A DNA stretch of 62,960 nucleotides, the filler included, from Sluysia triapertura (Eukaryota): NCBI GenBank assembly GCA_046118255.1. It is 5 parts of 5 records of this genome, joined end to end, with 100 filler letters (N's around TTAATTAATTAA, not from the genome) between each part and the next. Parts side by side here need not be neighbours in the genome. Positions count along the whole stretch, not along the records: positions 40,036 to 51,309 come from JBJNIA010186503.1; 4 more parts are not named here. One strand, 5' to 3'. Positions 11,481 through 51,409 of the stretch are shown one piece after another. Below the pieces are notes generated by a model. That model made no database searches. It saw only the letters and a program-made list of their open reading frames with translations, and was not told where the DNA came from. Within the stretch, counting starts at the first letter, position 1. Each line of letters opens with the position of its first letter. The position numbers and the translations under genes were made by a program.

Positions 11481-11580
11481 NNNNNNNNNNNNNNNNNNNN
11501 NNNNNNNNNNNNNNNNNNNNNNNNTTAATTAATTAANNNNNNNNNNNNNNNNNNNNNNNNNNNNNNNNNNNNNNNNNNNN
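11481..11580. other. Assembly gap spacer
   Basis: 44 N + TTAATTAATTAA (stop codon in all six frames) + 44 N, identical at four sites. Confidence 0.97.
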
Positions 11581-13199
11581 TAAGTTTATCAATCTATGCT
11601 AAAAAAAGTCATCATTTTTGACGGTCTTGTCGAAAAAAACCATGCGTTAAGTGGTTATTATATGTACTTTCGAGAATTTTCTATTTAATTAATTTTGCAA
11701 AAACTTTTAAAATTGAAAATGTAAAAATTAAACTTTTATAACTTTATACTGTAACGAACAAATTTTTAAATCTGAATGTTTCTGATTCCGTCCTCTCGAT
11801 ACAAATTAAAAAAATAAAGTGTTGCACAATAATAATCATATTCGAGTTAGATTCATTTATCTTATACTTGCAAGACTTAATTTTATCACATGGATTATTT
11901 ACGAACATTTCATCAATAATTTAGTAAATCCATTTTCAGTATGCTCTGATTTCTTACATATTGAAGATAGACAATGGCACGGATGATAATGAAGCGCTTA
12001 TACTTCGCAATGAAGAGTTTACATAAGTATTTTAGATTCAACTTAATTATTTAAATTTTTTTCTTTCATATAAATTAACGAAACACCACTCATCACAACC
12101 ATACAATCACAAAACCAACTTCAAAATCTTAAAAACACTTTAACTTACAAAACCCTTAAGACTTTGTTATAAAATCAAATAACAAAAACAAGCTCAATTC
12201 TTCTTAACTTGTTATTCTGATCTGCCCTTTATAATAAGAAATAAGCTACTTGAAAAGCTTTTTGTAATGAAATATCTCAAAGAACATTTTGTGGAATCAA
12301 ATTCTGGCATCTATTAGATTCTATGAATACCTTAATCAAAAGTTTAATTAAAGAGACAAGAATTATAAAATTGCATTAAACCATGTAGCAAGAGAAGACA
12401 CTGCACTTAAAAGAACAAAATTGAAATATTGAGAAGCAATAATGGGATAAATTCAAATTCATATTGAATTACAAAAGCAAACTAGGAAAACAATTAGAAA
12501 CTCAACATATTATGTTAATGTATAAAAATGAAATGTAATTTGTATAAAAATGTAATGGAATGTTTTTCATGTAAATAATTAGTGTAATATAATATTTTAA
12601 TTTTAAATAGTTGTTATTTTATATTATTGATATTATTATTAATAAGATAACTATCGAAGATAAAACTATCAAAGAAATTTATGCCATTGCAAATTAACCA
12701 ATATTACTTCAAAATGTTTAAATAACTGGTGTTTTATTATATACAAGAAACATAAGTTACCACAACAATGGAATTGAGACAAATCAATAAATTATCTACA
12801 TTTACCATATTAGAACAGAACTGTTTATCTTTTGTGTTTACAATAACGATAGAATATCCATTGCTGATTTTTCGAAGGAAGAAAATATACCATGATTTAG
12901 GTTTATAACTTATGCAATGGAATACATATAGTTTAGTAGCTTTTTATTCAAATACTCAATTATATTATATTTCTAATAAAATTATGCAAAATTAAAATTA
13001 ATTTTTTAATGCGATGATAAAATCACTTCTTAAATCATGTTTAAATGTGATTAAAAAATCAATCAATAAAACCTCAATAGTGCAAGGACAAATAACCATT
13101 AACTCGTTTATTAAACTCAAATCGAACATAATTCCAGTTAAGTTACAATTGAAATTTAATCACTCAGATTTTAGTTTACAATAGTGCATCATAACAGAG

Positions 13200-15099: not shown

Positions 15100-16700
15100 T
15101 AATTCGAATAAATTATAGCTGTTGAAGTTAAAACTGCATTTTAGCCTTTAACTTTTAATAAAACGTAAGATTATGCCAATTAACTATTTTAGATGTAGAT
15201 GTGTTTATACCAATAGCAGTTTGGGATTTATGCCTTTATGAAATAATAATAGGTATGGATGTTATAAGTAAATTAGAAAATATCGTCATTCATGGTAGAT
15301 TAGGATTTTTAAAGATGACAGCAAATGCACAAATATCGTTACCACAAATTGTATTAGAATCAACATTGAATGGAATATCACATTCTATCATATCTCAACA
15401 TAATCATCATCCACCGAGACCACCTACACCAATTCCAAATTGGAATAACCTAGACTGGTGGGATACGACGGTGACATCAAATTATGGATCATCAGATACA
15501 TCAGGAAGAGAAACTAATAATGATAATTATAGTAATGGTAATTATAGTAATAGTAGTATGTTAATAACAGGAATACAGAACAATAAATCTGTTTATATTA
15601 TTGCTCTAATACTATTATTTATGCAATTAATAGCAATGATAAATTCATATCCATCAAAATTAATATCATATACTAATACTACATAAGGACTCTTCGTAAA
15701 AAAATACTTTTAATCGATATTGGTCAATAAAGTTTGATATAAAAAAATGAAATCCATTCTTAACAAAACAACGTTAAGACATAAACAATATTTACTACTG
15801 TGAATATTCAATTTATTATAATACTATTTTAGCAATTTCGTTGCTTAATAATGTCACATATTAAAGATATGTTTAAAAATGTTAAATACTATAATATTAC
15901 TATTGAGGAATGCAGTCCACCATTAACGAGTAAACCGATAATAATCGAAACAAAGAGTAATACTATCAATACAAATATCACTACGTCAATTAAATAAAAA
16001 GGAGGTAATAATTATATCTTTATAATATCACTTGCAATATTTACTTTGCTTCATTTAATGTCTTCAATCTATTGCATAATTGTTTGTAAAAAGACATTAA
16101 AAACTTCAAATATGAGAAAAGATATGTTATTAGTGTTGTTATCAATAATAACAGTTTCGGATGGATCACGAAAAGTTTACAGATCTAAGTATTTTGATTT
16201 TTATAATTATGACGCAAATATACAAGTTAAAATAATGGATAATAGTATTGAAGCACAATGCATCTGCATAAATCCTGGTAGATTTAATTTTAGCACACAG
16301 AAAGTTTATAAACAATATATACCTATAGTACTACGATTCTAGGATTTTCTATAAAACTAGGTAAGAATCTAAGTTTACCTAATAAAAATCATTTACAGAA
16401 CATAACAAATGACTTTATAACAAACCTCTATCACGTCATATTTAGTTACTTCATTTTGACTTCGTTTCTTTTTCTTACAACAGCAATACACACTATATTT
16501 CAGATGTGGTGGTATTGTTATGTTTATGATACTTAAAATTATTATATTATTCAACAAAAAATTTATAATATATCTTTTAATTGTGGCTTTCACAACATTT
16601 ATTTTAACTTCGAATTTTATACAGTTGATACGTAATTTTTGATTTAAAATTTTAAGATAGAAAAAAATGAGATCTAAAAACACTGAAAGTTTTATTGAAT
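15100..16700 (+). mobile_element. 3' fragment of a retroelement related to the 41.7-49.3 kb element: aspartic protease C-terminal half followed by TM/signal-peptide segments
   Basis: YEIIIGMDVISKLENIVIHGRLGFLKMTANAQISLPQIV aligns with LDLIIGLDILDKLDDMVTHSKYGLMKFPQGAQLLLPQVV (ORF 47847-48269). Both are followed by a Ser-rich linker and hydrophobic segments. Confidence 0.75.
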
Positions 16701-20894: not shown

Positions 20895-21615
20895 TTATAA
20901 ATTCAAATATAAAATAGTGCTTTCAGATATTTTAGTATCAACCGTATACATTTGAACTGCACAAAATCTTTTATGTGAAATTCTGTTTTTTATAAAAGTT
21001 TCGTAAAAGAGAGGCAATAAATTAAATTCATTTTTAATATAGATAATTGCATAAACATTATATTTCGATTTCCATCTATCATGCGGTTTTAAACGTATAA
21101 AACTCCATCCCAAAGTCGTATGTTTACTATATGTTTCATAAAACGGATAAATTGGTCTAATATACATCGCATACATTGATAAATTCTCTGTTTTTTGGAT
21201 ATGCTGGATACAATTGCAATTTTAGTTTCTTCGAAATTGGATGACTTTCCCAATTATTTTGATACCAAAAAGCAGCAACTCCAATTATAAATAATGGAAA
21301 TAAAATACTTAACTGCACAAATATTTTTAAACCGACATATTCAAGCTGAAATGGTTTTAACTTTTCGGACATACATAGAGGCATTATATAATAACTTGGA
21401 AGAATAAATGCATGTATTACTAGTATTAATGTTGGCCGCTTCAAATGATATAATACAAAATTATCACTTTCATTCCCAAGCAAAAATGAAAAAATATTTT
21501 CTATTGTCAATCCAGAACATACTACAGCATCGGTTGGAAACAAAATTAGCAAGACCACCACGACAAATATGATAGAATAACAAAAATCTAGTTTGGAAAA
21601 TGTAATAGTATCCAT
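20895..21615 (-). CDS. TMEM129: TMEM129-like E3 ubiquitin ligase, N-terminal/TM part; C-terminal RING not found (partial gene or pseudogene)
   Basis: ORF 21157-21615: LFPTDAVVCSGLTIENIFSFLLGNESDNFVLYHLKRPTLILVIHAFILPSYY and WYQNNWESHPISKKL match TMEM129 (P.EF..AGLTV.N.....LGSE...FV..HLRR; W....W..HP). The continuation in another frame (YIKNEFN) is weak. Confidence 0.8.
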
Positions 21616-22365
21616 AATGATTTTTTAAAAGGAATTATTGATAAATTTTATTAAATTTATAAAACAAAAAATTAATATATAACATATAGAATAAAAATGT
21701 AAACCAAAATAAAATCAATTATAATTATAAAATATTAAAATATAAAAAGTTTTAATGCTTGACAAAATATTCCAAATTATTTAAACAACGCAATATTATG
21801 AAGAATGATATCTTCAAAATATTAATCAAAAATAAATTTTATAAGTATTTAGAATATAATTACATTAATCAATTGTGAAGGTAAGAGTATTAAATTTGCA
21901 ACTCCCGTTAATTTATATATGTTAGTTTGTGAAAAATAAACATTTTAATTTCAGTTATTTATTGAGGAAGTTATTTTATAAATATTGTTATTTTTCAGGT
22001 CTCTCAATGAAGGTTTTTGGAATAAATTTACCACATTTGGTACTGATGCACGTCACTTCCATGTTAGTTAAAAGATAAGGTAGTTGTAAGGATGTCGCCG
22101 CTTGAAGGTCAAGGGATTAATATTTTATAAAGTTTTTTGGATATTGGATTTTTATTAGATTATAATTTTTGTTCACAGAAAATTTTAATTTTATTTTAAA
22201 AAATCTGTTGTGAAATAAGAATATTTCAAAATAATTGTATATACATTTATTTATTAAACTAAATAATATAAATTTTATGCACATAATTGTTTATTGACTT
22301 TATACTTCAAGCCGAGTTGGGGACGAGCTACTGTACTTCTGACCTTGTGAGTTCTGAAACAAAAA

Positions 22366-23563: not shown

Positions 23564-23729
23564 TCCCGTCAACGTTTCCAATTATATATATGTGAAATGA
23601 ATGGGTACGTATTCTTTAATCCTTATTTTATTTACATTGTTAAATAGTGCGATATTACATCTACATCTACGGTTAATATATATTTCATTATATGGAGGAG
23701 GGGATCGCTATATAAAAAAGTTTAAGAAG

Positions 23730-24195
23730 CCCTGGTATATACTAAGCGAACTGACCCTACAGATAATTTGTTAGGAATAAGGAAAAATCTAACATTATCA
23801 TTAAGTTTAGAATTTGAATTAAATTGAAAAAATCATATAACTAAATCGATCACTAAGTTAAAATCCTTTTTTTGCAACAACACCTTAATAAAAGGGTTGT
23901 GCAATATAAATAAAATACTCTTTTCGATACAACATCTCAGCAAGAGAGTTGTGTAATTTATTTTCTTGACAACACCTTAATAAAAGGGTTGTGTAATTTG
24001 TTAAAATCAAAAGATTTAAGCAGTTGAATTGAGTTTATTTAGTTATATTGATTAGTAATTTAAGTTAATTTAATTAGTTGTAAAATCCTAATAATGCGTC
24101 TCCAGAATTGGTATAAAACGTATATATTAGGTGGACCGATCCCTCAGATAATTTGCTGTTAAGTGTAAGATAAATTGTAAAAACACCAGCAGTAG
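23730..24195 (+). mobile_element. Solo/partial LTR related to the LTR at ~41750-42231
   Basis: aaatcctaataatgcgtctccagaattggtataaaacgtatatattaggtggaccgatccctcagataatttg aligns with 42128-42200. It carries the same caacacctt..aagggttg hairpins, a partial duplicate of the 3' block at ~23740-23770, and no adjacent PBS. Confidence 0.8.
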
Positions 24196-26567: not shown

Positions 26568-29500
26568 TCCTGCCTTTAATTTTCGAAATAGGATTTTAAA
26601 CGTTTAAAATTAATTTAAGTATATTTTAAAATTTGTCTCCAAAGAGCAAATAGAACTTAAATAAATAAAAAATTTTCCAATAAAGATAGACGCCAAATGT
26701 AACGCTCTAGACACGCAGAATTTATCAGTGAAATTGAAATTATAAAATTGTAACTTTACGAGAGTGAGTGAAAAATTTGTTGGATTATATATCAGTCTTT
26801 AGCCAATCACATTCGTCCACATATACTAATAAAATAGTTGTTTTTTATAAACAGCTAATACTAATAAGAATTAAATTTTGAAAAATAATTTCTTTTAAAT
26901 AATTACTTAAATTACTTATCCTAAAAATGTCGTGCCACCAGAATACAGAAATTATGATAATTTGTGGATATATTTGCAACTCTGAATTAAAGGAAATTTA
27001 AAATTTTTAGCGTCATATCTATCCTAATGATGATATATAAAATGCATGGCATGAAATTTTATTTCCATTTAAGAATATAGCACCTTGTGAACTACTATTA
27101 GGACCATATCATTTTTAGAAAGTAGCTCAAAATATCTTGAGGCAAATTTATCACACCTTTCAGTTTTGTGGCAAGCTTTTTATGGACAAATTGAAATATA
27201 TTATTAAAATAATAGAATTCATAAAATGGCAAACATTTTCAGAGCCGAAATTTATAAAATTTCAGGGCTTACTTGGAAACTAATTATTGGTTGTTTCACA
27301 TGACCATGCAAACTCACAAATAAATGCTTTTGAAAATACGTTGAAAAAAGAAAGATAAACTGAAAATATAATTCTTCATGCAATAGAAAATGTAGGAGTT
27401 CATAAAAAACGAAGAAAATAAATGATTACTTATGTCAAACTCCTCTAACGTTTCGTCGAAAAAAAGTAATTCGATGATTATTGATAATTATAATTATTAT
27501 GTGCAAAAAGACGAACATAATAATTGAACCAGTGATGAATTTAAAAATTGAACAGTTCATTTGTATAATTTCGAAGGTGTCATGGGAGACACTAGCTGGA
27601 GTTATGAAAGCACATTGTGAATTAGGAAAAACAATAATGATGTAAAATTTGAAGACATGATTATGAGAATGGACACATTATTACAACTTAAAGATATTAT
27701 TTTAGATTTATTTTAATACATAGTTGTATTATATATTATTAAACATAATTTCTATTCAGTGTTTTTGTTTATTTGAGTAGTTAATTCTAAAGTTCATAGA
27801 AAATTTATAAAAAAGCATAGTAATTTTTGTTAATTAGATTGATTAAAATTTCAACAAAATCCTGTGTGGATGACAACTTCAATTAATCAATATCCATTCT
27901 TTAATTAATTTTTGCCCAAATGAAAAAAAGTTATCTTACATATTAATAATTTGCCTTATGGTATCCAATTCGGCATAATAGTTATAAATGGATTTTACAT
28001 AAATGAATTACACAATTTAATTGCGAATTAACTAATTTCAGATACTGTCGATAGTGAAGTTGGCTTGATTTTTCTATCCCATATACGCAATAGATAGATG
28101 ACTTATTTTCATCTTCGCAATCTAAATGTCCATCAAATTCAAAATTTAAAAATTATTATTAACTCATGAACCTAAATTAAATTATATAATGCATTGGCGT
28201 ATCATCCAAGTGTATAAGTATTTTTAAAAAATATATAGATTTTAAATGAAATAAGTGTTGTCAGGTAGCACTAAAATTCCAAACAAAGTTTAAAGTCATA
28301 ACCCTTTAAAATCCTTGAAAATAACATAATAACACTTCGAAATTATTTAAAAATCATTTAAAAAATTTTCGAAAAAGAAAATTCACTTCTAAAAATTGAA
28401 TATAAGCTTGCAGAATGTTCTAGAACTTTATTATTTAGTATTATATATTTCAAGATATTGTAGGTAAATTTAAAGATGGAGATCAAAGTAAATAATAAAT
28501 AATCGTATTTTAAAATATAAATAAGTTTCAAATAATTACTTACTTACAAAAGTAATGTATACAATTTTATTTTAAAGTGGTATAATTTGATTGGATGGAA
28601 ACTGGTATATAAACCAGTGAAATTTCAGTCAAGTTCAGAATTTAGTCATTAGTATTCAATTTGAGTTTTTGTGATATTAATTGTAGCCGATGAGTAATTC
28701 GTCACCATCTTGTTTTATTTATTCTAAATAATTATATAATAAACTAGTAAGATTAAATCAATTGTAAAATGTATTGTATTAACACAAACTTTAAAAACAG
28801 GTAAAATAATATTTATAATTGCTATTTTGTCCGATTGAATGAGAGCTAAAATCATTTATACAATTCATTAATATTAAAATTAAAGGCCTAAAAACTGTAC
28901 TGTTCTAACAACAATTCTAATTGTGATTTTATATTTATCACTTGATAATTCATTTTTACGATTTGATTTAATCATTGTTGAATCTATTCGTGTAAACCTT
29001 CTAAATTTTTTGTATTGAAAATATTAATTACGAATTTGTGAAAAACTTGGTGTATATTGGTGTCACACTTTAAAATGCATTTAGACATTAAATAATGACT
29101 ACTAGATATTTCTCGGATTCTACATATACGAAGAGTTATCATAAATATTAAGTTGCAATATTCGAAATTTAGAGTCAAATTAAATTCATATATTCGTTGT
29201 AGTTATGTGAACGTTTTAAGTCTCGTACTGTAACCGTATTTTTCAGTTTACCCTACATTTAAAAAATAATCATAAATTAAAATTTAATCTGACTAATTCG
29301 AAAAGGTTTAGGCAAAACAAAACAAAACAAAACCAAACATTCTAAATTAAAATTTCGTTTAATGTATTTTCTAATTTTCAGAATTTAGTTGTTTACTGAA
29401 ATAAATAGCTAATTTATAACGCTCATTTTAATATATTGAATGCTCTAAGATTGTACAAAATATCGACTGCTCCAAAAATAAAATATCACAATGTTTTAGG

Positions 29501-30252: not shown

Positions 30253-33200
30253 ATGGCTCGAAAAAAGCAAGAAGTAGCTTTACAAATTGAAATTAATTCA
30301 CAAGAAGAATGGAAAGATATGATGCAAAAAGAAGGATTATATGGTAAAATGATACATTGTTATTTTTGTAATAGTAATCGATGTATATCAAGATTGGTGT
30401 GGTCCTTGTAAAGCATTAATTAATTTTTTTCGTCGAATCAAAAACGAACAGGGAGATGAATTATTGAATTTTGCAATAGCTAAAGCTGATACTATTGATT
30501 CATTGGAGAAATATCGTGGTAAATGTGAACCTTGTTTTTTGATGTACGGCGTAAGTTATAATATTTTAAAAAGTGTATTTAATATTTTATAAAGTAACAC
30601 ACTATTTATATCATTTATAATTATGGCGATTGTTTCAAAATTATGAATCCTTTTAGCCAAGGAAAAATTTCATGCTGCCACAAATTATTGTTCAAATATG
30701 AATTTTACAGTAAATATGTTCAGCTAAGTTGCCATTCATCCGCCAGTTTCCAAATGTTAAGAATTGAACATAGATAAACTTTTTTGTATTTAATGTTGTA
30801 CGATATTTGTAACATAATAAAATCTTGATAATTTGCGTTATTTATTACAGGATAAATTTATCCTACATCTTCACAAATCCAAGTTCTTTTCAATCTTATT
30901 TGGCAAGAATAATAATAATAATAATAGTAGTAGTAAGAAAATTTATATTTCAATTTTTAAATTCTTTTATTCTCTCTTTCATTTTATCATTTTTTATAAA
31001 TTTGAAATATATTTCTCTTTATGTTCAGTAATTAATTGTTCCACATTTTATTTGGCATTTTTGAACATTGATAATTCAGATTTTGCTTTAAAGATTTCCG
31101 TTTTATTTAAGTTATTAGTTTTAATCTCTTAAAGAACTATTGCAAATTTCTCTAACATACAAATGTTGTGGTGTATTCTAATTTTTAGTTTAACAAAGTG
31201 GTTTCTGAAGGCTTCAACATTGATTTATTGGGGGGTATTGTACATTGATACAGAGTATTTGGAGTATTACTATTAATTGATACTTTAAAAATTGTTATTA
31301 AATTCAGAAATTTACGAAATTTATTGAAAAAAAATTTAAATAATGCTTAATACATTGATTAATTTTGTATTAAAATTTTGTCTAAAATTGCTTGTATATG
31401 CTACTGCCACATCTTCAATTGAACCTATAAATATAAATGTTAAAATGTAATCATCATGAATAAAAACTAATAACAGTTTAATAAAATTAAAATGTACTTA
31501 AGAAACGTTTTTATTGTCCATATAGTTATGTATTATGTTAATTTCAGATTCATCAAATTGTGAGCAAAAATGATTGATTGCATTGACCTAGGAATTGGTC
31601 ATAATTCATATAATCCGTGTGCATAAGGACAAGATTTTCCATACCTGATGCATTGGCCTGATATTGTAGTTTCGTATATACATAGTGCTGATTTAAAAAA
31701 ACTTGATTTATCATTGTTTTCTTTTTCATTAAACTTTCCACGAGAATAATTATGACTGTTTAGGTTCAAAAAATAACTTGCGTGTTTATCATCACTTATC
31801 ACACTAACTGGTCTTGAATGAGTAGTCGATAAAACTTGCTTGTCACTAAATGGCTCATTAGAAAAATTAGGTATTTGCATTACAGTTGAAATTGAATGGC
31901 CAATTTAGAGGTGAACCTCTGGTAAAACCGCTGCGTTGATCATTTGAGAATAAGTTATTTGTAAAGGATTGCACTGGTATAACGAATATTGTACATGCTT
32001 CTGCATTGCGTGACACTTATTTTTTAAATTAGCATTTTTATTCCTTTTATTTAATTTATCTAGATTTTCGACAGCTTTTTGTACAATAATTGAAGGCCAT
32101 GTATCATTATCTTTCGAAGTTGGAAAAGATCCACGTAATTCTGTATAACTACTTTTAATATTAGTACTTCGCTTTGTATCTGATAGATTGTAGATATTCT
32201 TTCTCAATCTAATCTCATCGGATAAATAATTATACGTATTAGAACTTGAGTACGTATGAGTTTGATTATGATCATCATATTCATAATCATAATCTTCATT
32301 ATAATAATCGTCGTTAAAACTGTTTACACCTTTAATTTTCTCGTGAGACATTTAGAACATCAAAGCTTGTTTTGTAATGTAATTTAAATTTAAATTTTAT
32401 AAATATAAACTTTGACTATTGCAATGATTATAAATTGAGTAAGTACTTTTTATTTGACGAGTTGATAATTTTAATTATTAAAAAGACTCTTTCACAAAAC
32501 CAAGAAATCAACTTTACATAAAATTATTATTACTATTATGATTTTGTCCAAATAAAAGATGATAAAACTACTTACAATTGGATGGCCAATAAAAACAACA
32601 TCAACTGAGTTGTTAGACAATAACTAATTTTCGTTTGCACACATAATCACTATTAGCTCAAAAATTAAAACTGTCAAATAATGACAGAGATAATTGCATT
32701 GTTGGAATGCTGTTGAAATATTTCTTTTTCTTACAATTGTGTAAAAAGTTTCTTTCTTAAAATTTTGTTAAAAAGTTTATTTGTTCTTTATGCTCTTTCC
32801 TTGTTTATTATTTGTATTTTGTTGAGAAAGTATGTTCTTTGTAATTCCTATTTCTTTTAATGATTCAAATACTTTACAGATCTTTTAACTGTTGTACAAT
32901 GCTAAAGTAATTGCTCGGGACTGTTGAATTTGGTTTCTGTTTTACAAAATAATTGTTATAATAGAAATAATACATGTTATAATAGAAATAAAAAGAAATT
33001 AAGGAAATTGGAGTTGTTGAAAGAAATTTCATTTATAATACTAATATATTTGAATTTGAATTGTAAATTTAATGATTTATAATATTATTTATGGTTTTAA
33101 TGTTGTAGGATGTGAGCTTAAAATTGTTTTGATATATTTACAATTTTGAATGATAAGGTTGGCCACCACAATTTATTATTTGTTTGACATAATTTAATGA

Positions 33201-34961
33201 AATAATAAGTGTGAATAAAGTTGTTTTGTTTGTGGCGTAAGATTAGCTTAAGGTTTTGTCTGACAAAGTTTGATTGTTTTAAAATGCTACTCTTTAGGTA
33301 ACTGATAATGATGAGAAATGTAAATAGTTGTACTAGTACTATTGTTAGACTTCATAAAATGGACTGACCAGGGATCGATGATTAAAAAACATGTATTAAT
33401 ATAATAGTTTTAGTCTCTTCTTTCTCTTTTTCTAGAGAAGGAAGGTAAACTTTCTTCTATTCAGGGTCCTTGTAGGACATGGTCGCGATATGCGTTATTC
33501 GAGGACTCCATAGCTAGTCTTACACACTGTCGTACCAGGGTCTTGATTTCGGTCTCGTGGAAGCCAGGTGCCTTGAGAAGCTTGTCATTCTCGGGATCTC
33601 ATGAGCCCAAGGCTCCAACGACGAATGTATCCAGAGACACCTTACATTTCAGTTGTTCCTGTAGTTTGCCCTGTAGATCAGAATACTTCGCAATATTGGT
33701 GGTTCGGGCTATTTCGAAATTTTTCTTCAGGTCCATGTGAGTTTTGACATCAATCAAGAACAGCTGCGATGAGGAGAATCCCTTTTGGGTCATTTTGTTC
33801 GTTAGGTAATTAAGGATTTTGTTGTGCCGGACTGTTCTGGCTGTGCTTGTGTGAGGACATAGACAGAGCACGTGTAGAGCACCATCGACATGATACTGGC
33901 AGATGGAAACGTATGTTCTGTGGACTGAAATTAAGACTAAGGATGTTGTTCCGGGCCTTTATTATAAACATCCATGCATTATTTTCCAGTTCCAGTGACA
34001 GGGATTAGTTGGAGAGTGGGTACTGCATGAGAGAGTCGACATAGATACCCTGGCACTTGAGAGATTTCCAGATATTGGTATTGCAAGTGCTGATCAACTC
34101 CTGTAGGTATTTCCCGACTTTATTCTTGTGGTAGTGGTTAATGAATAATTGGGTTATCGCCAAGTATGTTCGACTTCAGTGATAGTTGGACATTGTAGTT
34201 ATCAGAGCAGATGAATGAAGCAGTAATCTGGTACTTTTGTTCCAAGTTCTTAATAGATGTTCGGATTTTCGACCACCAGGTTTTTAACCTAGCGCACTTA
34301 ACCGTAGGACTTCCATTGAGCCATGCGAGAGCTTTGGTAAGATCCACCCAATTTCCATTCATCCGGCTGTTGGCTATTCGTATAACTTCCCGATGTGCCA
34401 ATGTGCGTAATATCGGTGTATGACTATTGAATAGTCTGAACGCACATATCACGTTTCTGACACATGTAGTTGTCCTATGCTAAGTTTAGGCTGAGTCCCC
34501 CATGGTTCCTGTGTGCAAGAAAGAAACTCCTGTTCAGTGGGTACTTTTTGAGATCGAGACACACTTTCAACAGTTCTTGTATCTTTTCGTCGTACTTCAC
34601 TGATTTGGATGTGCTTTTAGGATGGGGATTGCTGAGGGATTGTACATTGATGTTCAGTTTCTTTAGATGGAACGGAAGTCTGGACTGCACAAAGTTCTTG
34701 TGCATGAGGAACTTATTCCAGATACTCAGTTTTAGTTCGGTGTATTTGATGTTCTCGTTTAATAAATCATTAATACTTTGCCGTTTATAGTCACCATATG
34801 GAACGCCAAGATATAGTTTGGTTTTCGTCGGAGTATTTTCGATTAGTAGTGAATATCTCAAGTCGTGGATGTTGTTGTTGAGCTATTAGCCCCGTCTAAC
34901 AATTTTTAGATTACTATAGTCCATTACACCACATGGCACTTTAGGCATATATTATTATGTC

Positions 34962-39935: not shown

Positions 39936-40035
39936 NNNNNNNNNNNNNNNNNNNNNNNNNNNNNNNNNNNNNNNNNNNNTTAATTAATTAANNNNNNNNN
40001 NNNNNNNNNNNNNNNNNNNNNNNNNNNNNNNNNNN
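39936..40035. other. Assembly gap spacer
   Basis: 44 N + TTAATTAATTAA + 44 N. Confidence 0.97.
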
Positions 40036-41749
40036 ATAGTGACATTCTTACGTTAGAACCTTCACCGCTTTAAAATCCTACGCTCTCGTCCGTTTTAGGT
40101 AAACCGATTGACGTAGGCGAACCCAAACTATAAACATAAAATTAGTATTTTATAATTGTTCAGGTCGTAGTAAAACCGAACACAACATATTAAAAGAATT
40201 TTATTTAATATCAATCTCAATAACCTCAATTTTAGTAATTTAATAATCTTTATACTTAATTTAATTAAAATTTTATTTTTTAATTTTATAGTATTATTAT
40301 TAAAATAAATTTATAATTAAATGTGAATAGAATTCATTTTTGATAAATAATTCTCTGGAATTGTTATTAATTAGATTGTGGTAAATTTATTTGTCTAAAA
40401 ATTCGAGAAACTAATTAGTTTTAAAAACAAATACTATATTTATTTTTAGAAAGCAAAAATGTTGCATTGTTTATTATCATTACTAATATTATTATCATTA
40501 TTAATAATATTATTAATATTCAAATAATTTTTCAAAGAAAAAAATAATCAATGATCAAAACCAGAAATAAAAGTAAAATAGTTAGGCAACGGCGAATATT
40601 TTATTATTTTACACAATCAAAATGTATTAAGCATGAATTTGCCTATAGTAGGTAGCTAATGCCTTATGGTAGCTAACCCTGAGGATTTTCTTTATTTATT
40701 GAATGCGATGAAGAATTAACGTTTCTGAGACACGTATCTGAAAATATAATTTTTAGATTTTACAAAAATATAGTAAATCAATTTGATTTAATTATGTAAT
40801 AATTTAAAAAAATTAATTTATTTGAAAAAAATCAAATTTGGACATTTATTGCACTAATCTAATAAATCAAATTTGGCCATTTATATTATTTGCAGAAATA
40901 AATATTCGGATATTTTTGACAAGGTAGATAATATTAGTAAATTAATATAAGTAGATCGAGAGAAATAATTGGAAATAGAGAGGAAAATTCAAAAACAGTT
41001 TTATAGTTAATTAAGAATATTAATATTCGACAATGTAACGAATCTGATTAAAATAACAACCGCAGTGATCCATTCGGAATAATATTCAACTATTTGTTTA
41101 TTAAGTTTTGTCTTCCTTCCGTGAAGACTTAAAATCCTACTCAAATTAGTAAACTTTTTCAACCAGGCCTATAGCATATAAAACTTTTTGTTATGTCAAG
41201 ATCAATTACATCAATACCTCTGGTAGCTGAAAGCGATTAACCGTTATAATTCTTCGTATTATCAACATTATTCGATGTGTCAGAGTGCATTTTGTATATT
41301 TTGTAGTTTCTAATTTGTATAATATTTCTTTTTATCTGTATAAATAATTTTTATTATAATAAATTTCAAATAAAATAAATTTTAAAATAAAATTTAGTTT
41401 TTTTAAAAAATATAAATTTTAAAATTTCTAATATTTCAAAAATTATTTTATTAAAATTTTAAAACGAATTTTAATATCTATTTTAAATAAAATAAAATTT
41501 TGCTTAAATAAATCAAAATTAAATTATTTTTTATTTTTCTTTAAATGAATCAATTTAATAAATAGAAGACAACTTCCAATATGGAGTAAATCAATTTTAT
41601 ATAAGTACGTAAGTTTTTAGCAAAAGTAACACAAATTTTTATAAAGTTCTTTCGGAGAAAATTTCAGTAGATAAATATTCCATGCTTTCCAAGTAATTTT
41701 TTATTGTTAGGATTTTCCAATTTACTTTAATAATGGAATAGTAAAATAT

Positions 41750-42231
41750 ACTTAAAGTCATTTTTATTTTGATGCAACACCTTAATATGGGTTGCGAAAC
41801 TTATTTTAAAACTGCCAACCGAGGTTGAGCTAGTTAATTAACTTATTATCGTCATAATTTTAATGTTTGTAAGAACTTTAATAAGTTTTTTCTTTGTTGG
41901 TAATATATACTTTAAGAGAGTTAGAATGTTCTTAATCTATAATAAACTTAAAAAATCATTTTTGTTAAGCAACACCTTAATAAGGGTTGCGTAATTATAA
42001 AATGTATAAGTTTAATTAAACAACACCTCGTAAATGGTTGTATCATAAATTAATTAATGAGTTACAAGTGATTCATATAAGTCGTAAGTGATAAGTAAAA
42101 AGTTTTTTCTAAAGTTAAATTATAAAAAAATCCTAATAGTACGTCTCCAATAGTGGTATAAATCGTATGTATTAAGCGAACCGACTCCTTAGATATTTTG
42201 TAAGAATACGTTTCTAAGAGAAACACTTGCA
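41750..42231 (+). repeat. 5' LTR (start uncertain; ends ..cacttgCA)
   Basis: Homologous to 23870-24190 and ends in CA five nt before the PBS. Confidence 0.7.
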
Positions 42232-42236
42232 AAATT

Positions 42237-42254
42237 TGGCGCCCGAAATGGAAT
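42237..42254 (+). promoter_or_regulatory. Primer binding site, tRNA-Lys(UUU)-like
   Basis: TGGCGCCCGAA matches the first 11 nt of the canonical tRNA-Lys3 PBS (TGGCGCCCGAACAGGGAC). It lies between the LTR end and gag. Confidence 0.8.
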
Positions 42255-42683
42255 CACTTGAAGCATATTATAAGTTTTCATTATTAAATCTATTTGATAA
42301 GTAGATATTGATTAAATTTGAATATAAGTTTTGTTATTATTGAAGTTTTTTGATAAGTTTAAGTTAATATTGATTAAGTTATATTTATTGATTAAGTTAA
42401 GTTTATAAGCTTTAGGTTTTGATAAATTTATAAGTTACGATTTTTGATTTTTGAAGTTACATTAACTGTGTTGATATTAAGTTTAAGTTGTCGTATTGTT
42501 AATTGTTAAATACGTTTTGATGAATTGATTACGATTATTATATTATTGATTTTATTTTTACGTTTACATTTGATTTTTGAATATTATTATTAAGTAATTA
42601 CGTTAAGAATAGATAATAATAATAATAACCCTAAGAAGAAATATAAGAGAACTTTAAGAAGCAACTCACTTGAAAGAATTACA

Positions 42684-43740
42684 ATGACAGTACCATTTGA
42701 AGAATTTAAAGATTGTATGACTCAACTGACTCAGAATATTAAGCCAATAGTAATACTTCCAGAAATGCGCAATTTTAGTGGCGCCGAAGAGGAACTTTGT
42801 GATTTCTTATTTGAATTTGTTAGCTTAGCTGAAGCCTATGGCTGGACTCAAATAGATAAGGTTAAGAGGATACAATATTATTTATCTGGTGTTGCAATAC
42901 AAACCTATAAAGAGATAAAAGATGAATATAAACAAGAGTGGAACACATTTGTCTATGTTTTTACTGAAGAAATAGATTTAGAAGACATAAGAAAATAGTA
43001 TGCAAGAATGCTTAATATAAGAGTGCAGAAACCGCACGAAACAGTTTATGAATTTGCATGTGCGATTAGAAGTTTGGCGTCTAGAGCCAGAATTCCAGAT
43101 AATAGAAGGGAATAATATTAATAGATAAGTTTAAAAATGGGCTACATTCCGAATTACGAATTTATGTAGATTTAATCGAAGAAATGCCATTCAAAGACAT
43201 AGTTAAGAAATTAAGAAGTATTGAAAGTACTAAAAATGAAACCAGAAAAAATATAAGTTACATAGGTGATAACAAGAATACAAGAAATAATTATAATGAA
43301 TCCCCTAAGCATAAGTATGAGAATTTTTTTGAAGACAATAACTTTAATAGTAATATCGGTGGTTTTAATAGCAATAGAGGTAACAGTAACAATAACTTTC
43401 GAGGTAACAATAGAAGAAATTTAAATAATTTTAGAAATAACCCAGGAAGAAATTACGCTAATGTTGGTAGGAGTAATAGAGTGTTTGAAAAGAGACAAAT
43501 AAATAATATGGGCTCAAGAGGGTACGAACAACGTCCACTGCCAAGATGGCCTATTAATCAACCTAATAATAATAATAATAATAATAAGAGATAAGAGATA
43601 TTTTAATAAGAGATAAAAGTCCTGCACGATCAAATTATAATAACAATTATAAAGCTAAAACAAATATAGAAGGTGATATAGTATGTCACAATTGTGGTAG
43701 GCATGGGCACTATGCTCGAAACTCGAAAAATCGAATAAGT
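42684..43740 (+). pseudogene. gag: Gag (capsid + NC zinc knuckle), frameshifted
   Basis: FSGAEEELCDFLFEFVSLAEAYGWTQIDKVKRIQYYLSGVA, QKPHETVYEFACAIRSLA and LIDKFKNGLHSELR are typical retrotransposon capsid motifs. An N/R/G-rich linker follows, then the CCHC remnant VCHNCGRHGHYARN (~43681-43722). Confidence 0.88.
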
Positions 43741-44188
43741 TAAGGTCAAATACTTTTAAGCAAGACTTAAATAAAATGTCGAACTCTAGACAGACCTCAC
43801 CAAGAAGATTAAGTTTCGATATGAATAAGAATGAAGGACAAATAAATTATAATTAGGATGAGGAGTATGAAAAATATGATTATGAGAGACATCCAAGAAC
43901 ACTGACAGATGAAAAGGATAAATACGAAATGGATAAATACGAAATCAAGGAAGAAAAGAAGCAACCTAGGAGTAGGCATGATGATGAAGAGAATATGTTT
44001 ATTAATTGTTTACATAATTACTTTATGCAATTAGTAAAAGAAAATGAAAAAGAGGATAAGAAGAGAAAAAAGATAGAAGATAAATAATTAAAAGTGCTCA
44101 ATAAATTGAAGAAGAAATAAAGCATGCCGAAGCAAATGTAAGAAGATGAATCAAGCATAGTGGCATAACAGACGAGGACGGGGATAGA

Positions 44189-45075
44189 TTGAGTGATATT
44201 GATTGTGTATTAAACTTAGAAGAAGAAGAAGAAGAAATGGATGACATACTCTCAGATACTGAGCCAATGATTATTTTAGGTAATGAAGAAGATATACCAA
44301 CCGAGGAAAATAGCACGAAAAAAACAGCATTTAGTGGTTTATCCAAAAAGGTAAAAAATACAGTTAAAAATTTAGACATACTTTTAAAGATTAATTTAGA
44401 TATGTTTAAAAGACAAAGTATTCGGTCATGTTTACTTTACCTAAGTCAGGCAGATAGCCCACATAGCAACCTGAAACATTAACGAAAATTAACGTATTAT
44501 TAGCAGAATTGATAAATGTATTTATGGAATTGCCTGTTACTATAGTAGTAGAAGATGTAATAGATATGCTTAAATAAAGCGATCCATCAATAAAGGATAT
44601 GAAATTATATTTCTTTAATAGATATCTAGAACCTAGAGAATATTTAATAGATTACGGCTACCAGTTGGGTGATCATGATGAAATGATAAAGGCAGAAATA
44701 GTACATGAAAATTCAAATAATGCTGAAAACGTAACAAATAAAAAAGATAATGAATTCCCACGTACGTTACTAAGACAATTAATGGATGATGATATACATG
44801 TAGTTGACATTGATGATGAAGCAGAAAATAATGAGCTAGTTGTTATCGATGCTGAAGAAGAAAAAGATGAGCCACCTGATTATATAGTGAACCTTAATAA
44901 AAACCCACATATAGAAACCGTTGATAAGGAGACAAATACAATAAAAAGAAAACCTGGGCGTCCACGAAGAGACGAAAATGATATAATAACTGCACCTATT
45001 GTTAAGAATGTTATTGATTTGTCAAAAATAAATTGTGAAAATGATGATGAAATTGAATTAGATATTAAGGAATAA
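44189..45075 (+). pseudogene. Acidic region with AT-hook, inside the retroelement
   Basis: D/E-rich ORFs; KRKPGRPRR at 44944-44970 is a canonical AT-hook core (GRP flanked by K/R). Confidence 0.55.
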
Positions 45076-45077
45076 GT

Positions 45078-45430
45078 TATGCCTTTTTATCCGAAAAATT
45101 TACTAATTTTACTAAATATAAGAAGTTATTGGCGGAAATCAACAAAGTGTATAAAGTTTCTATATATAAATTAATAAGTAAGTTTGAAGAAAGATATACG
45201 GATAAAGATATTAGTGATTTTATAGAAAACGAACAATATAAAGTAGTGATAAATAAGTTAATTAATAAAGGATTTGATGAGGAAAAATTGAAAATAATCT
45301 TAACATACGTTATATACCAATACAACCAAGAAAAAATGGTTACCAAAAATAAAATAGATAATGTTATAGATTTTGTAATTAAGAAAACTAAATTATGGAT
45401 TGAAAATCAAGGAGGTTGGCGCAATATAAT
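45078..45430 (+). other. Putative Bcl-2-like domain inside the retroelement polyprotein
   Basis: BH2-like WIENQGGW at 45396-45419. It is preceded by amphipathic helices spaced like Bcl-2 alpha4-alpha6 (YKVVINKLINKGFDEEKLKIILTYV...KIDNVIDFVIKKTKL). The BH1 NWGR motif is not conserved. Confidence 0.55.
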
Positions 45431-45548
45431 AAAAGGGAAAAATAATCAACAAACGAAAAAGCCGACAAATATAATGACACAATTATTCGACAATAACAGT
45501 AACATATTAAATAATGCAATACCAAGGATAGGTAATTCGACAAGTAAT

Positions 45549-46700
45549 ATACTGTTTATCATAATACTATTATCAATGTTCGGCATAAATAGAACTAATG
45601 TAATAAAGGCATTTGACTGTAGCCAGCCACAAGTGAGCAGAAAATTTTCATTACTGGACAGTGAAGATTGTCCTGAATCAAGGCCAAATAGAATAACGGA
45701 AACCAATTATCAAGGAATTTATCTCTCAGAGAAAATAATTCAACAAGCTAAGAAAGGCGTTGATATAAAAAATATAAAATTAAATGCCTATTTTAACAAT
45801 AAAATCGATTTCTATTACCATTTAGGTTTGATTTCGCTAGAAAAAGTTTTAGGGATTGTTAATTAAACAAAGAAATTTTACGCACAAAATTGGCAATAGC
45901 TATTAGAAATCCAGACTTAGTCGTACCACTACTACCATTAGAAGAAGAAGTTTTCGGTCGACTAATGGGAGAGGTATTATACACGTATAAATGTAAAAAG
46001 GTAGAAGTGCAATTAAGGTCAACTACCGAACGCACAAATGAATCACCCATATTATACGATATTTTCAGAAATATACCTCGAACCAGTAACTAGAGTAATC
46101 TTTCCAAATAACAAAGTCAACAGTTAATGCACTGCTCTAATGTCATGGCACCGGAATATAGAATCGACGATAATTTACGGATAATTATTGGAGTCAAGTA
46201 AAAACTCCAGAAATAATAGAACTAACCGAATTAAAAGGAAGACTAAAATTTTTAGCTTCAAAAAATATACAAAATTCTGGCATTTATACGAATGACAATA
46301 TTCAAGCAGCCTGGCAGGAGGTATTATTCCCAATAAAAAGATCAAAAATATTAACTGAAATCGTAGATAAAGCAACAGTTGAAAAGAATGGACAAGTAAA
46401 TTTCGAATTACTATTGGGACCCGATCATTTTAAAAGAGCTGCACAAGATACATTGAAACAGATATGGGGAAAATTTTTAATAATAGGATAAGCACTTTCC
46501 GGATTGATAGAAATATATATAATTAAGGTAATAGCTTTGATAATTTCTCAAGCTTTTTCAGTAGTCGGAATTTATAAAGTCTCAGGATTTGCGTGGAAAT
46601 TGATAATTGGATGTTTTCCATTTTTGGCAAAATACCTCTTGCACCACCACGTAAATGCTCAAATAAACGCATTAAGAAAAGAAAGACAATATGCAGAAGA
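45549..46700 (+). pseudogene. env: Env: chuvirus-like (class III, gB-related) fusion glycoprotein, internally deleted and frameshifted
   Basis: Signal peptide ILFIIILLSMFG, then AFDC....SLLDSEDC, LNAYFNNKIDF, AIRNPDL..FGRLMGEVLYTYKCKKVEVQLRSTTE.TNE.PI.Y, EPVTRVI, CSNVMAPEYRI, and WGKFLIIG..LSGLI followed by TM segments. These follow the motif order of chuvirus G-like proteins. Confidence 0.8.
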
Positions 46701-46754
46701 AAGACTTATGGAATACTTAGATTTAGAAATTCAAAAGATGAATTTAGTAACACC

Positions 46755-47700
46755 AATATTAATACAATTTCATGATGGACAATTGGTGGACATCTATCTA
46801 AGAGAAAAACACTATCCAGAATAAAAAACAACTATTATTGGGAGGATATGGAAAATGATATTACAAATTGGTTGTTCAATGTGCTGCAGGAAAAAAAATA
46901 CAGGAACCTATGGAATTCACAGCAATGGACAGAATGGGACCATTACCAGAAACTATTAGTATATTATCGTATTTGCAATTTTTTGCCTAAATGGCCTGAG
47001 GCATATCCGATGCCGAATCAAAAGGTAGAGACCGTAGCGCAAATACTTGTAGAAAAATAATTTATAGATACGGCACACCAAGGAAACTGTTGACAGATCA
47101 AGGCACAAATTTTATCAGCGATATAATTAAATCAGTAGCGAAAATATTTAGCATTCTTAGAATTTATACATCATCTCATCATCCACAAATAGATGGATTA
47201 GTCGAACACTTCAACTAGACACTGATAAATATGATACAGTCATATATTAAAGATAGGCAATCCGATTGGGATTTGTACATTGCACCATGTTTATTCGCTT
47301 ATAGAAGTTCGTAAATCCAGCTACGAATTTTACAACATTTTATCAAATGTATTGACGGCATTCTAATATGTCTGTAGCTTTAGAATGGATACCACCAATG
47401 TCACAATACATGGAAACGCCAGAGTATGTGACAGTAATTCATGAAAGATTACAGGATGCATGGAAGCGCGCTGGCCTGCAAATAAAGTTTTCACAAGAAG
47501 CATACAAAGGTGCATATAATAAAAATGATAAAGAGCATAACTTTCAAATGTAACAAAGTACTTATTGAATATCCATTGACTATTCAATGGACAATCACCA
47601 AAGTTGCATAAACCATTTAAGAGACTATATGAAGTGATAAAAATTACTGATACTAATTTATTTGTTAAAGACACTACCAAAACATTTGTAGTACGTGTAG
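46755..47700 (+). pseudogene. int: Gypsy-type integrase, frameshifted
   Basis: HHCC region ILIQFHDGQ/GGHLSKRKTLSRIKNNYYWEDMENDI; KWPEAYPMPNQKVETVAQIL; RYGTPRKLLTDQGTNF; TSSHHPQIDGLVEHFN; DWDLYIAPCLFAYR; GPY/F-like PKLHKPFKRLYEVI. Confidence 0.92.
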
Positions 47701-47869
47701 GTGTAAAATAGCACCAAATAATAAATACAAGTTAAGAAATAGGGCAGTTACCAAATCACTATTAAAAGCTAAACCGAAAATTAAAGATCGTGATAAACCA
47801 CCAACAATACAATCATTAGTTGATAAACAAGTAATAATGATGCTTAATGTATCACTGGAGACCAACAAA

Positions 47870-48190
47870 TATTTTTCAAAACGTGCGTTTTAATGGTAGA
47901 TTGATCCGAGCTGTTCTAGATACCGGAGCTACCATATCTATAATACATTATATTTTTTTAACTACATGGGAACTTGTATTTATAGATCCACCACAAACAA
48001 TAATTTATAATGTTCAACGAGCACCAATAAATAAGAATGGAATAATACATACACATTTAGATTTAATAATTGGCTTAGATATACTTGACAAATTAGATGA
48101 CATGGTTACACATAGTAAGTACGGTCTTATGAAATTTCCACAAGGTGCACAACTATTACTTCCTCAAGTTGTTGTTCCATGTCTCAATAA
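47870..48190 (+). pseudogene. Retroviral-type aspartic protease located downstream of integrase
   Basis: VRFNGRLIRAVLDTGATISII (catalytic D at 47919) and LIIGLDIL. Confidence 0.85.
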
Positions 48191-49729
48191 TGACATCATA
48201 TTCCAACACCTGATCTTGAATTTAATAACCCGGTACCGCTGTCTCATCAATGTCAGAAGTAACAAGTGAATTTTCAGAGTCATCATCAGGAATTGGTTCT
48301 GTTGACACAGTAATGCTCACTTTTTCTAGTAAAAATAATTATAAGGCTAGGCAATCTTTCTGACATCATCATTATTAATATTAACGATTTTATTTTTAAC
48401 TTTGATTGGTACAGTTAAGCCAATAGATATTGAGTAAGATGAGGAATATAGAAATTTAAATGCAGCAATTAATAACGGAAATGAACAAAGAATATCAATT
48501 ACAGATATATATAATGAGTATCGGGAGTTAAAATTTAATTCGAAGAAAATGTTTTTACGTCATAACTTCGATATTTACTGCATCTATTTAGAACCATTAC
48601 TTATCGGAAAACCACATCATATAGACAAAACTCCACGTGGTTTGCAATATGCATATAGACCAATGCTAATAGCATTTGCCTTAGACACAAAAAGAAATAT
48701 AAGAAAGGTACGAAATTTAGTGCAAAATATAACAAACAAAGTCATAAATAATTGTACTTCTAAACTCAAGACTAGTAAACTATCATCTAACGACGCTACG
48801 TAAAAAAACTTACATTTTAGTTCATAAGTTGATCATTATCTCAGTAATTCTTATAGTAGTATATTCCATATGGATTATATTACATAGTTGATTTTAGTAA
48901 ATAAATTACGGACAAGTAACATTAATAAAAATTTGATACCTCTAATGATAACAATGATAATTACTACAGTCCAATGTAACTGTAATTAGAGAACAGTGCA
49001 AGTGATAGTATCTTAGCAATAGGCTGTGACAGTTGTAGGGAAATCACACAAAATTCATCACACTTCATCACATAAAAACATTTCACAGGTACACAGATTA
49101 TTAAACAAACTACTAAACTCTTCTAAAAAACAAACATAATCATCGCACATAATTATCATGAACTACAGCTATTATTATTACAATTCAAATCATATTAAAC
49201 TATATATAATAATTATAGTCATTGTTATATAATATGAATATCAAATAATAACTTTTATAATAAATTTCATATCAACATCAACAATTCAGTATTAATAAAC
49301 ATAATAACCACGTTATTGTTATCATTATTATTTCTTTTATCCTTATTATCAGTCTTTCTTTTTACTCTTCTGCTTTTCTCATTTTTATTTAAACAGTAAT
49401 GCTTAATCAGAAAGATCTCAAATTGTCAAAAGAATGTATCAAAAAGAAGCAAATGATGCGCCAATAAAATCATTGACACTGAGTAATGGCATATAAACAC
49501 GATTATTAGAAAGTTTTCTTAATACAGAAGATTCGGCAACATTAATGGAATCGTTTTTAAAAATTGAACAGCTTCAATTATTAGAAAATTCATTATCAAA
49601 AGAATCAACGATTAAACTTTCAACAATTACAAGTATTACGGAAATTATTATTTATTTATTTGCTAATGCCAAATTACATGATACTATGCAATATTAATCA
49701 AAAGTTTATCAATACATACCATTTACCGA

Positions 49730-49920
49730 CAGTTGTCACGGAAAATGTAACGTGTTGGAAAATAACTACTTTCACCAAAAATAGATAAAAATACTGAGAT
49801 CCAAAACATACAGAAATCCTATTTATGCAGAATTTGATAACACAATTTATTACAAATTAAATACATACAAAGTTACATATCAGTACTTTGTTTGCTCTCT
49901 TTGTGGCTAATAATTCCCTT
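49730..49920 (-). mobile_element. Fragment of the same Tc1 family as 4058-4602, inverted
   Basis: Sequence is the diverged reverse complement of ~4300-4510 (tgttggaaaataactactttc, ataacacaattt, atatcagtactttgt). Confidence 0.8.
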
Positions 49921-50711
49921 AAAATAATTAAAAAACAAAACAAAAATAATAAAAATTATAATAATTAATAAAAAATATTTATCCTATAAAATATCAATAT
50001 TAGTTTGATAAATAAAAGCAACTTTTTAAAATGTTTATACATGGACTTATTTTATTATTTATCAAACAAATTGAATGCTTCAATCATGTAGAAATAATCA
50101 AAAATGGTTGTTATATTGGTAAATTTTGTTTTCAAGAACATATAAATAATAATACATTTAAGTTTACAAAACAAATTTAAAATGCTCTGGAAAAGAAAAC
50201 TATAAAGCTTCTGTAGGTGAACCAGTATTCGACAATTTTTTCAATGGATCTATATACGTACGTAGTATTATATGCGGATTTAATGAAGATTATTCAGTAA
50301 TTGATGGAGAGTATAAAATGATTTATTTAAAAGTAATCATCATTTTAATAAAATAATTTATTTATCGCGCTCCACACAGCCACGAGTGCCACCTAATAAC
50401 TTTCATATCAGTATCATCAATACCACTATTTTAAAAAATATAATAATTACCGTATTGTTATCATTATTATTTCTTTTATCCTAATTATCAACCTTTCTTC
50501 TTATTCTTTTGTTTTTTCCCAGTTATATATTTATGTGTGTGTATCTGATAAGGTACTTGTCAATTAGGTACAGCTGTATTTATTATATTAACTTGTTAAA
50601 TCAAATATTATTAAATCAATGTCGAAAGCATTACTATTGCAAAATCAATCAAATGCAAATAACCTCCACAAATTCAAATAACTATATCGAATATTTATTT
50701 TTTTATGCCAG

Positions 50712-51182
50712 ATGATAAAGTTTCACTAAAGCCATTTGGAGATGATAAAGATAGACGTTTAAGTAGTATCCTTAAACGGAATTATTGTAACATTCATTTA
50801 CATCATAATAAATTGGTTATTAAAGGTCAAAAACGATGAAAGTCCATCTGTAGAATCAGCTGTCAAATGTGTTAAGCAAGTTTATCAATATTTTCCTAAT
50901 TTTTATGTCAGTACAGCTTTAGAACGTTCTTTGGTAGATATATCTTTACCAAAAGTATGTAATGCTAAACTTTTGAAAAGTGAAAAATTTTATTCAATTT
51001 AACGTATTTTCTTTACTTTCATGTAATCGGTAAACGTAGAAATGATTTTATTGTATGGTTAAATTCTGGTGTTTCGGGCCAACTAACATCGAGTCAGTGC
51101 GTTGTCTTAGCTAATGAAAATTGTAATCGTGATGCCGGATTTAAACGAAGCTATGTACAAATTCATGGACAAACTAAAACAG
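50712..51182 (+). pseudogene. Coding-like exon fragments of unknown gene
   Basis: Open stretches (NWLLKVKNDESPSVESAVKCVKQVYQYFPNFYVSTALERSL; NDFIVWLNSGVSGQLTSSQCVVLANENCNRDAGFKRSYVQIHGQTK) with AG/GT boundaries. Partly similar to 49400-49720. No family recognised. Confidence 0.3.
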
Positions 51183-51309
51183 GTATTTAATCGGTTTATC
51201 CTTACATCAAATAACATTGTATTTAATGCTACAGTATTAATATAATGGAAATGTTGATTTATAAGGATACTTATTTTTGCTTTTAATTACAATTGTATTC
51301 TATTTTTAT

Positions 51310-51409
51310 NNNNNNNNNNNNNNNNNNNNNNNNNNNNNNNNNNNNNNNNNNNNTTAATTAATTAANNNNNNNNNNNNNNNNNNNNNNNNNNNNNNNNNNN
51401 NNNNNNNNN
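51310..51409. other. Assembly gap spacer
   Basis: 44 N + TTAATTAATTAA + 44 N. Confidence 0.97.

Follow-up and report, generated by a model that had tools for sequence, protein, structure and literature searches.

Planarian genomes reportedly harbor giant Gypsy-like long terminal repeat (LTR) retrotransposons, Burro/GYPSM1, whose description is said to go back to Jurka in 2007 and to Grohme et al. in 2018. As set out in the available part of a review (Arkhipova and Yushenova 2019, PMC6431247), Burro elements of planarians are larger than 30 kb, with paired LTRs and an open reading frame (ORF) near 5000 aa, and are present in thousands of copies, with decaying fragments in Dugesia japonica. The 4873-aa ORF1 encodes a Gag with CCHC knuckles, Ubi2/SUMO-like and BCL2 domains, an envelope protein (env) between BCL2 and the protease (PR), and dUTPase-like, BIR, MATH, and ankyrin domains; pol reads PR-dUTPase-like-RT-RH-IN (reverse transcriptase [RT], RNase H [RH], integrase [IN]). 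The same text likens this env to mononegavirus glycoproteins, calls it the first in-frame env between gag and pol, and describes cargo that differs between published members; this placement of env, after a BCL2-like domain and with gag and pol in the same frame on either side, has thus been on record for Burro since 2019 (PMC6431247). According to the available parts of other articles, Burro1 is abundant, active, and controlled by PIWI, and Burro elements hinder assembly (PMC8532177, PMC13238120); a second-hand statement holds that Burro1 protects planarian stem cells via a captured IAP module and that the element is found in Dugesiidae and Geoplanidae (PMC13465017). Here we analyzed 62,960 nucleotides of DNA from Sluysia triapertura (GenBank assembly GCA_046118255.1), referred to below as the window, and we conclude with good confidence that it contains the dead remains of a Gypsy-type LTR retroelement with internal deletions, most likely of the Burro-like lineage of planarians.

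This conclusion rests on a comparison with relatives. A HMMER search with the Bcl-2/env ORF returned 20 proteins at E values up to 0.001, and 17 of the 18 that were scanned carry PF24664. Adding cluster members and the results of a second search (13 of 5883 candidates) gave a total of 35 proteins, and a metagenome scan contributed 3 loci out of 595 pattern matches. A word-index search with the end of env yielded no relatives, and none turned up in three scans of viral contigs or in one of prokaryote genomes. RT is present in 12 of the proteins (P0008, P0009, P0021, P0024, P0026-P0028, P0030-P0032, P0034, and P0035) and in the ORF of locus L001. In all 13, env, protease(s), RT, RNase H, and integrase lie in one ORF and in this order; since P0008/P0026, P0031/P0032, and P0024/P0030 are close pairs, the 13 relatives do not amount to 13 independent cases. 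The ORFs of the RT-bearing relatives span 2627 to 4844 aa, and the longest (P0021) contains ankyrin repeats. P0029 combines capsid, two knuckles, ubiquitin-like, AT-hook-like, Bcl-2, env, protease, and ankyrin parts in one ORF that ends before RT. The layout of intact relatives is gag-(cargo)-env-PR(s)-RT-RH-IN-(PR)-membrane tail.

Pieces of the window map in order along the single ORFs of these relatives (tblastn), and env and integrase, as well as gag where the record reaches that far, match the same relatives. The comparison shows collinearity interrupted by two missing blocks, one inside env and one between env and integrase. The copy is ~7 kb long, and all of its named features lie on the plus strand, in the order listed, within positions 40036-51309, which contain no N and lie between one gap that ends at 40035 and the next, which starts at 51310 (the window has four gaps and is ~74% AT). 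The features are as follows.

41742..42236 (+), 5' boundary approximate: LTR-like segment with three short inverted-repeat motifs (41775, 41970, 42021) and no 3' partner found; 81% identity over 74 bp to 24082-24155
42237..42254 (+): primer-binding site (PBS); PBS-like 11-mer with 1 match in the window versus 0.04 expected by chance
42684..43115 (+): gag capsid region with one internal stop; PF03732 (Retrotrans_gag) E 0.0037, tblastn to relatives down to E 2e-13
43106..43594 (+): Asn/Arg-rich gag linker, frame shifted; from the ORF list, with a similar low-complexity tract in P0004
43681..43722 (+): CCHC zinc knuckle, final Cys lost; zf-CCHC E 0.016, match to P0030 E 0.002
43857..44482 (+): acidic/charged spacer, broken; from the ORF list
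44539..44662 (+): candidate ubiquitin-like domain, weak, at the expected position; the window's best match to a profile of 8 relatives, domain E 0.13
44950..44970 (+): AT-hook-like motif KPGRPRR in an acidic region; from the ORF list, with GRP[RK] ahead of env in 7 of 21 long relatives
45075..45450 (+): Bcl-2-like domain with a BH2-like motif at 45396-45419, canonical BH1 motif lost; profile of 7 relatives, E 1.5e-10
45549..45608 (+): internal signal-like hydrophobic segment ahead of env; hydropathy 1.93, same position in relatives
45609..46749 (+): Monjiviricetes-type env (PF24664), interrupted by frameshifts and stops and short of ~240 residues near 45700; a membrane anchor lies near 46492
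46700..46750 (+): large-deletion junction, protease(s), RT, and RNase H having been removed; 9-46 aa here versus 835-2127 aa in relatives (11 of 12)
46750..47670 (+): Gypsy-type integrase (zinc-finger region, D-D-E core, degenerate GPY module), frameshifted; PF17921 (Integrase_H2C2) E 2.9e-8, PF00665 (rve) E 0.0017
47841..48269 (+): post-integrase aspartic protease, DTG at 47919; RVP E 1.4e-4, collinear tblastn chains
48351..48803 (+): signal-like hydrophobic segment plus tail; hydropathy 2.54

An earlier note on this DNA had read env-integrase-protease as the order of the element itself. The relatives do not bear this out, since all 13 that carry RT read env-PR(s)-RT-RH-IN. Two elements of the proposed order are shared by the lineage, namely, env ahead of pol and a protease after the integrase (a further DTG motif follows the integrase in 8 of 12 RT-bearing relatives), whereas RT and RNase H lie between env and integrase. 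The note had also suspected that RT and RNase H were lost by deletion, and this proved correct: a profile from 8 relatives run on six frames of the window gave a best E value of only 0.16, and the block present in 11 of 12 relatives is absent. A tblastn match to the RH-IN linker of P0027 falls in another frame. Thus, env adjoins the integrase because of a deletion, and the post-integrase protease is a lineage trait rather than a rearrangement. The individual parts that the note had named (gag with a zinc knuckle, an AT-hook in an acidic region, a Bcl-2-like domain, a signal followed by a glycoprotein lacking its middle, a Gypsy integrase, a DTG protease, and hydrophobic segments, all on one strand) were recovered with the scores listed above, and the collinear relatives confirm its general picture of an enveloped Gypsy-type lineage whose single long polyprotein includes accessory domains, represented here by a decayed copy riddled with deletions.

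Within env, PF24664 matched four ORF pieces (E values of 1.1e-3, 2.3e-7, 7e-11, and 6.2e-3; the Pfam scan took in 16 ORF pieces of the window), covering profile positions 4-57 and then 340-611. Relatives carry a further 213 to 248 aa within env (10 of 12 measurable). A structural model of the relative P0001 (pLDDT, a model confidence score, of 68) matched chuvirus-type glycoproteins (E 8e-37) and herpesvirus gB (E 7e-13), with low TM-scores (~0.27 for gB). Because of these matches, the model supports placing the env family among class III glycoproteins, as the note had proposed.

The Bcl-2-like domain precedes env directly, and 7 relatives carry a matching segment at the same place. A profile built from these 7, without the window row, picked out the window segment (E 1.5e-10; 504 six-frame blocks searched), and the runner-up had an E value of 1.8; the relatives were picked by their BH2-like motif, which introduces a mild selection. 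On its own, the segment scored weakly against Pfam (E 0.014 to 0.08) and went unrecognized in a single-sequence PDB search, with BAX at E 2; the Atlas lookup was blank. All 8 rows (the window and the 7 relatives) matched Pfam Bcl-2 at E values up to 0.1 (best, 2.3e-5), and the family profile searched against the PDB retrieved Bcl-2-related A1 (E 4e-5) and Bcl-xL (E 2e-4) as best matches. With a model of the segment (pLDDT 61), Foldseek gave a best E value of 0.16, every listed row being a Bcl-2-family chain, and a VIA search gave a best Z of 5.7, which is not discriminating. The loss of the canonical BH1 motif makes canonical BH3 binding uncertain. In 8 Bcl-2-bearing relatives, the env signal lies ~50 to 80 residues behind the BH2-like motif.

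Upstream, the gag region is 23 to 34% identical to 6 of the 13 RT-bearing relatives, and the records of several others begin after gag; the Retrotrans_gag and zinc knuckle matches were obtained from single frames read with X at stops. At 44539..44662, Pfam gave no ubiquitin match in the window, and ubiquitin matches were found in the relatives P0030 and L002. This segment is possibly a ubiquitin-like domain overlooked by the earlier note. Downstream, the integrase core is 53 to 65% identical to 13 env-bearing relatives versus 38% to one canonical Gypsy control. At least two hydrophobic segments follow the integrase in 11 of 12 RT-bearing relatives, and 48351..48803 is a probable remnant of a C-terminal membrane protein; its tail showed no sequence match to the tails of relatives, and Atlas was blank here as well.

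At the 5' end, the primer-binding site expected from the note was found at 42237, and we take it to be of the tRNA-Lys type. The LTR claim held in part. A second LTR-like copy is present at 23.9-24.2 kb, and its similarity to 41742..42236 stops at the primer-binding site, as expected for an LTR end; however, self-blast of the window detected no downstream partner. Because it is unpaired, we call the segment LTR-like only. The second copy belongs to a stretch at 23690-24190 (+) that shares the inverted-repeat motifs, includes an internal duplication, and stops at the point where the PBS of the main copy begins; it is possibly a solo or 3' LTR.

The window holds further fragments of the family at ~15, 24, and 27 kb. 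At 15162-16342 (+), the C-terminal half of a post-integrase protease (37% identity over 54 aa, E 6e-10) is followed by ORF pieces with hydrophobic segments. At 27017-27355 (+) lies a decayed C-terminal env fragment of the same family (E 7e-12) with no integrase after it, which therefore lends no support to a shared deletion. In run X1, 24,734 contigs map to 40047-51300 at ≥80% identity, 18,169 of them less than 95% alike (2000, 4565, 9880, and 8289 contigs by falling identity band), and cover every module of the element, the depth over this interval not being a copy number. These contigs and the additional fragments point to a large, old, and abundant repeat family. Just 3' of the element, other repeats at 49258-49377, 50394-50516, and 49733-49919 (an 82% pair; 73% to 4302-4507) probably represent insertions unrelated to it, marking the point where its 3' side was cut off.

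Elsewhere in the window, a GC-richer stretch at 33400-34900 (-) contains ORF pieces to which Pfam gave no match and which, judging by a motif, we take to resemble the C-terminal part of an R2-type non-LTR element. Host gene pieces, TMEM129-like at 21157-21624 (-) (E 4e-22) and an Unkempt-type CCCH finger at 31599-31904 (-) (E 4e-10), indicate a eukaryotic host. The genome of Schmidtea mediterranea exceeds 70% AT, according to the available part of PMC11410931, and the AT content of the window is compatible with a planarian host without being proof of one.

The set of relatives provided several observations of its own. Behind its giant ORF, L001 has a separate 496-aa ORF (10617-12107, +) that encodes an RNase_T-family exonuclease domain (E 1.4e-5). 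Single ORFs of relatives such as P0021 and P0005 contain as many as 8 D[TS]G motifs, together with ankyrin and C2H2 domains. The Burro-like polyprotein P0009 is filed under a Flavobacteriaceae metagenome-assembled genome, probably through misbinning of a eukaryotic contig. A canonical Gypsy PR-RT-RH-IN occurs in L004, whose record bears the name of a Wolbachia plasmid; it is probably host retrotransposon DNA.

Several points weigh against a Burro-like assignment or against parts of it. Burro was compared by its published description and not by sequence, so descent from it is inferred from architecture, and Pfam detected no BIR or MATH domain in the window or the relatives scanned and no ankyrin in the window copy. 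The structure searches for the Bcl-2-like domain (Foldseek, VIA) were not significant alone. Its profile matched 8 of the 35 retrieved proteins, 7 of these being training rows, and none of the 12 RT-bearing proteins, and the full combination relies on overlapping partial records and the published description. Trees of env and integrase pieces, with one or no outgroup, left the branching around the window unsupported. Searches for a 3' LTR, a polypurine tract, and a target-site duplication were negative, and no contig bridged either deletion among the pieces listed (8 of ~25,900 in run X1).

As the likeness to Burro is one of architecture and no BIR or MATH domain was detected in the window or the relatives scanned, a Gypsy clade might have gained a chuvirus-type env and a Bcl-2 domain apart from planarian Burro, all the more since Anakin, a BEL/Pao element, also captured a chuvirus-type glycoprotein (PMC7642597, available part). 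We consider such an independent lineage very improbable because the gag-ubiquitin-like-Bcl-2-env-PR order, the ankyrin cargo, and the ~4,800-aa ORF size agree with Burro, the element presented as the first with an in-frame env between gag and pol (PMC6431247, available part). A nested insertion or chimera, with env from one element and integrase and protease from another, could likewise place env next to an integrase without RT and leave no paired LTRs or target-site duplication delimiting one element. Yet env, integrase, and post-integrase protease all align in order with the same single ORFs, neither strand nor purine skew changes between 42 and 47 kb, and self-blast revealed no internal LTR fragment. 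Nested insertion marked by such fragments was the objection that the earlier note had raised against itself; it is largely refuted, and a chimera seems to us extremely improbable. Finally, the deletions could be assembly artifacts of a collapsed high-copy repeat, the real locus being longer and still Burro-like. Very many similar contigs exist, the scaffold is gapped, and neither junction is spanned among the 8 contig pieces listed; against this, the junctions appear to join non-homologous ORF parts, which would be unusual for repeat collapse, and small deletions and stops are found throughout the copy. We see little chance that the deletions arose in this way.

As a dead, internally deleted copy of a Burro-like element, the sequence in the window cannot transpose alone because it has no RT or RNase H and because stops or frameshifts interrupt each of its parts. 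In an intact element, retroelement biology would predict transcription from the 5' LTR, priming by tRNA-Lys, and synthesis of one polyprotein. Env would enter the endoplasmic reticulum by way of the internal signal, the env anchor would bring the enzymes back to the cytosol, and several aspartic proteases together with signal peptidase would free the parts. The Bcl-2-like module may dampen host-cell apoptosis, and, more speculatively, the env signal might remain as a tail anchor of the Bcl-2-like protein.

A more far-reaching proposal would make the Burro-like lineage wider and more modular, with hosts beyond Dugesiidae and Geoplanidae, 1 to 8 aspartic-protease motifs including one post-integrase, a second C-terminal membrane protein, and swapped cargo (Bcl-2-like, ankyrin, C2H2, separate exonuclease ORF); the env signal would double as the Bcl-2-like tail anchor after cleavage, and the RT-less layout would represent a non-autonomous subfamily amplified in trans. 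We regard this as tentative, and it is unlikely that all of it holds together. The copy itself is a fossil; it is the lineage that matters, as the Bcl-2-like domain before env, in the window copy and 8 proteins, is a second anti-apoptotic candidate beside the IAP module attributed second-hand to Burro1 (PMC13465017, available part). The relatives offer natural intact sequences for testing the function of this domain and the host range of the lineage.

Among known systems, Troyka shares with the element an LTR retroelement organization with a single Gag-Pol ORF (Kojima 2025, PMC12440569, available part); it was rejected, as the same text describes Troyka as lacking env and GPY/F and having CG termini, and env and GPY/F are present in the lineage studied here. 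Errantiviruses (Metaviridae) also combine a Gypsy-type pol with an envelope gene but differ in their env family, likely from a baculovirus (PMC12440569), and in its location in a separate 3' ORF (PMC6431247), as far as the available parts of both articles go. Anakin of mosquitoes (Dezordi et al. 2020, PMC7642597) is an LTR element that acquired a glycoprotein of the class found here, on a BEL/Pao instead of a Gypsy backbone, and the available part of its description mentions neither a Bcl-2-like domain nor Burro. Affinity to Ty3/Gypsy (Metaviridae) is apparent from H2C2 and rve in the window, where GPY is degenerate, and, in 11 of 12 relatives, from an RT-RH-IN order with a GPY/F motif. From Burro, the window copy differs by its ~7-kb size, its single damaged knuckle versus two or three, and its lack of PR/RT/RH in the normal place, of part of env, and of the 3' LTR. 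The relatives have several proteases, a post-integrase protease, a C-terminal membrane protein, and a separate exonuclease ORF, which do not figure in the available part of the Burro description (PMC6431247). The likenesses to Burro are env in frame between gag and pol (gag, env, and integrase in the window, with env ahead of PR-RT-RH-IN in all 13 RT-bearing relatives), a mononegavirus/chuvirus-type fusion glycoprotein, a BCL2-like domain just before env, a Gag with CCHC, a ubiquitin-like domain that is weak in the window and clear in relatives, one giant ORF plus ankyrin in relatives (P0021, P0029), and a high copy number with decaying copies.

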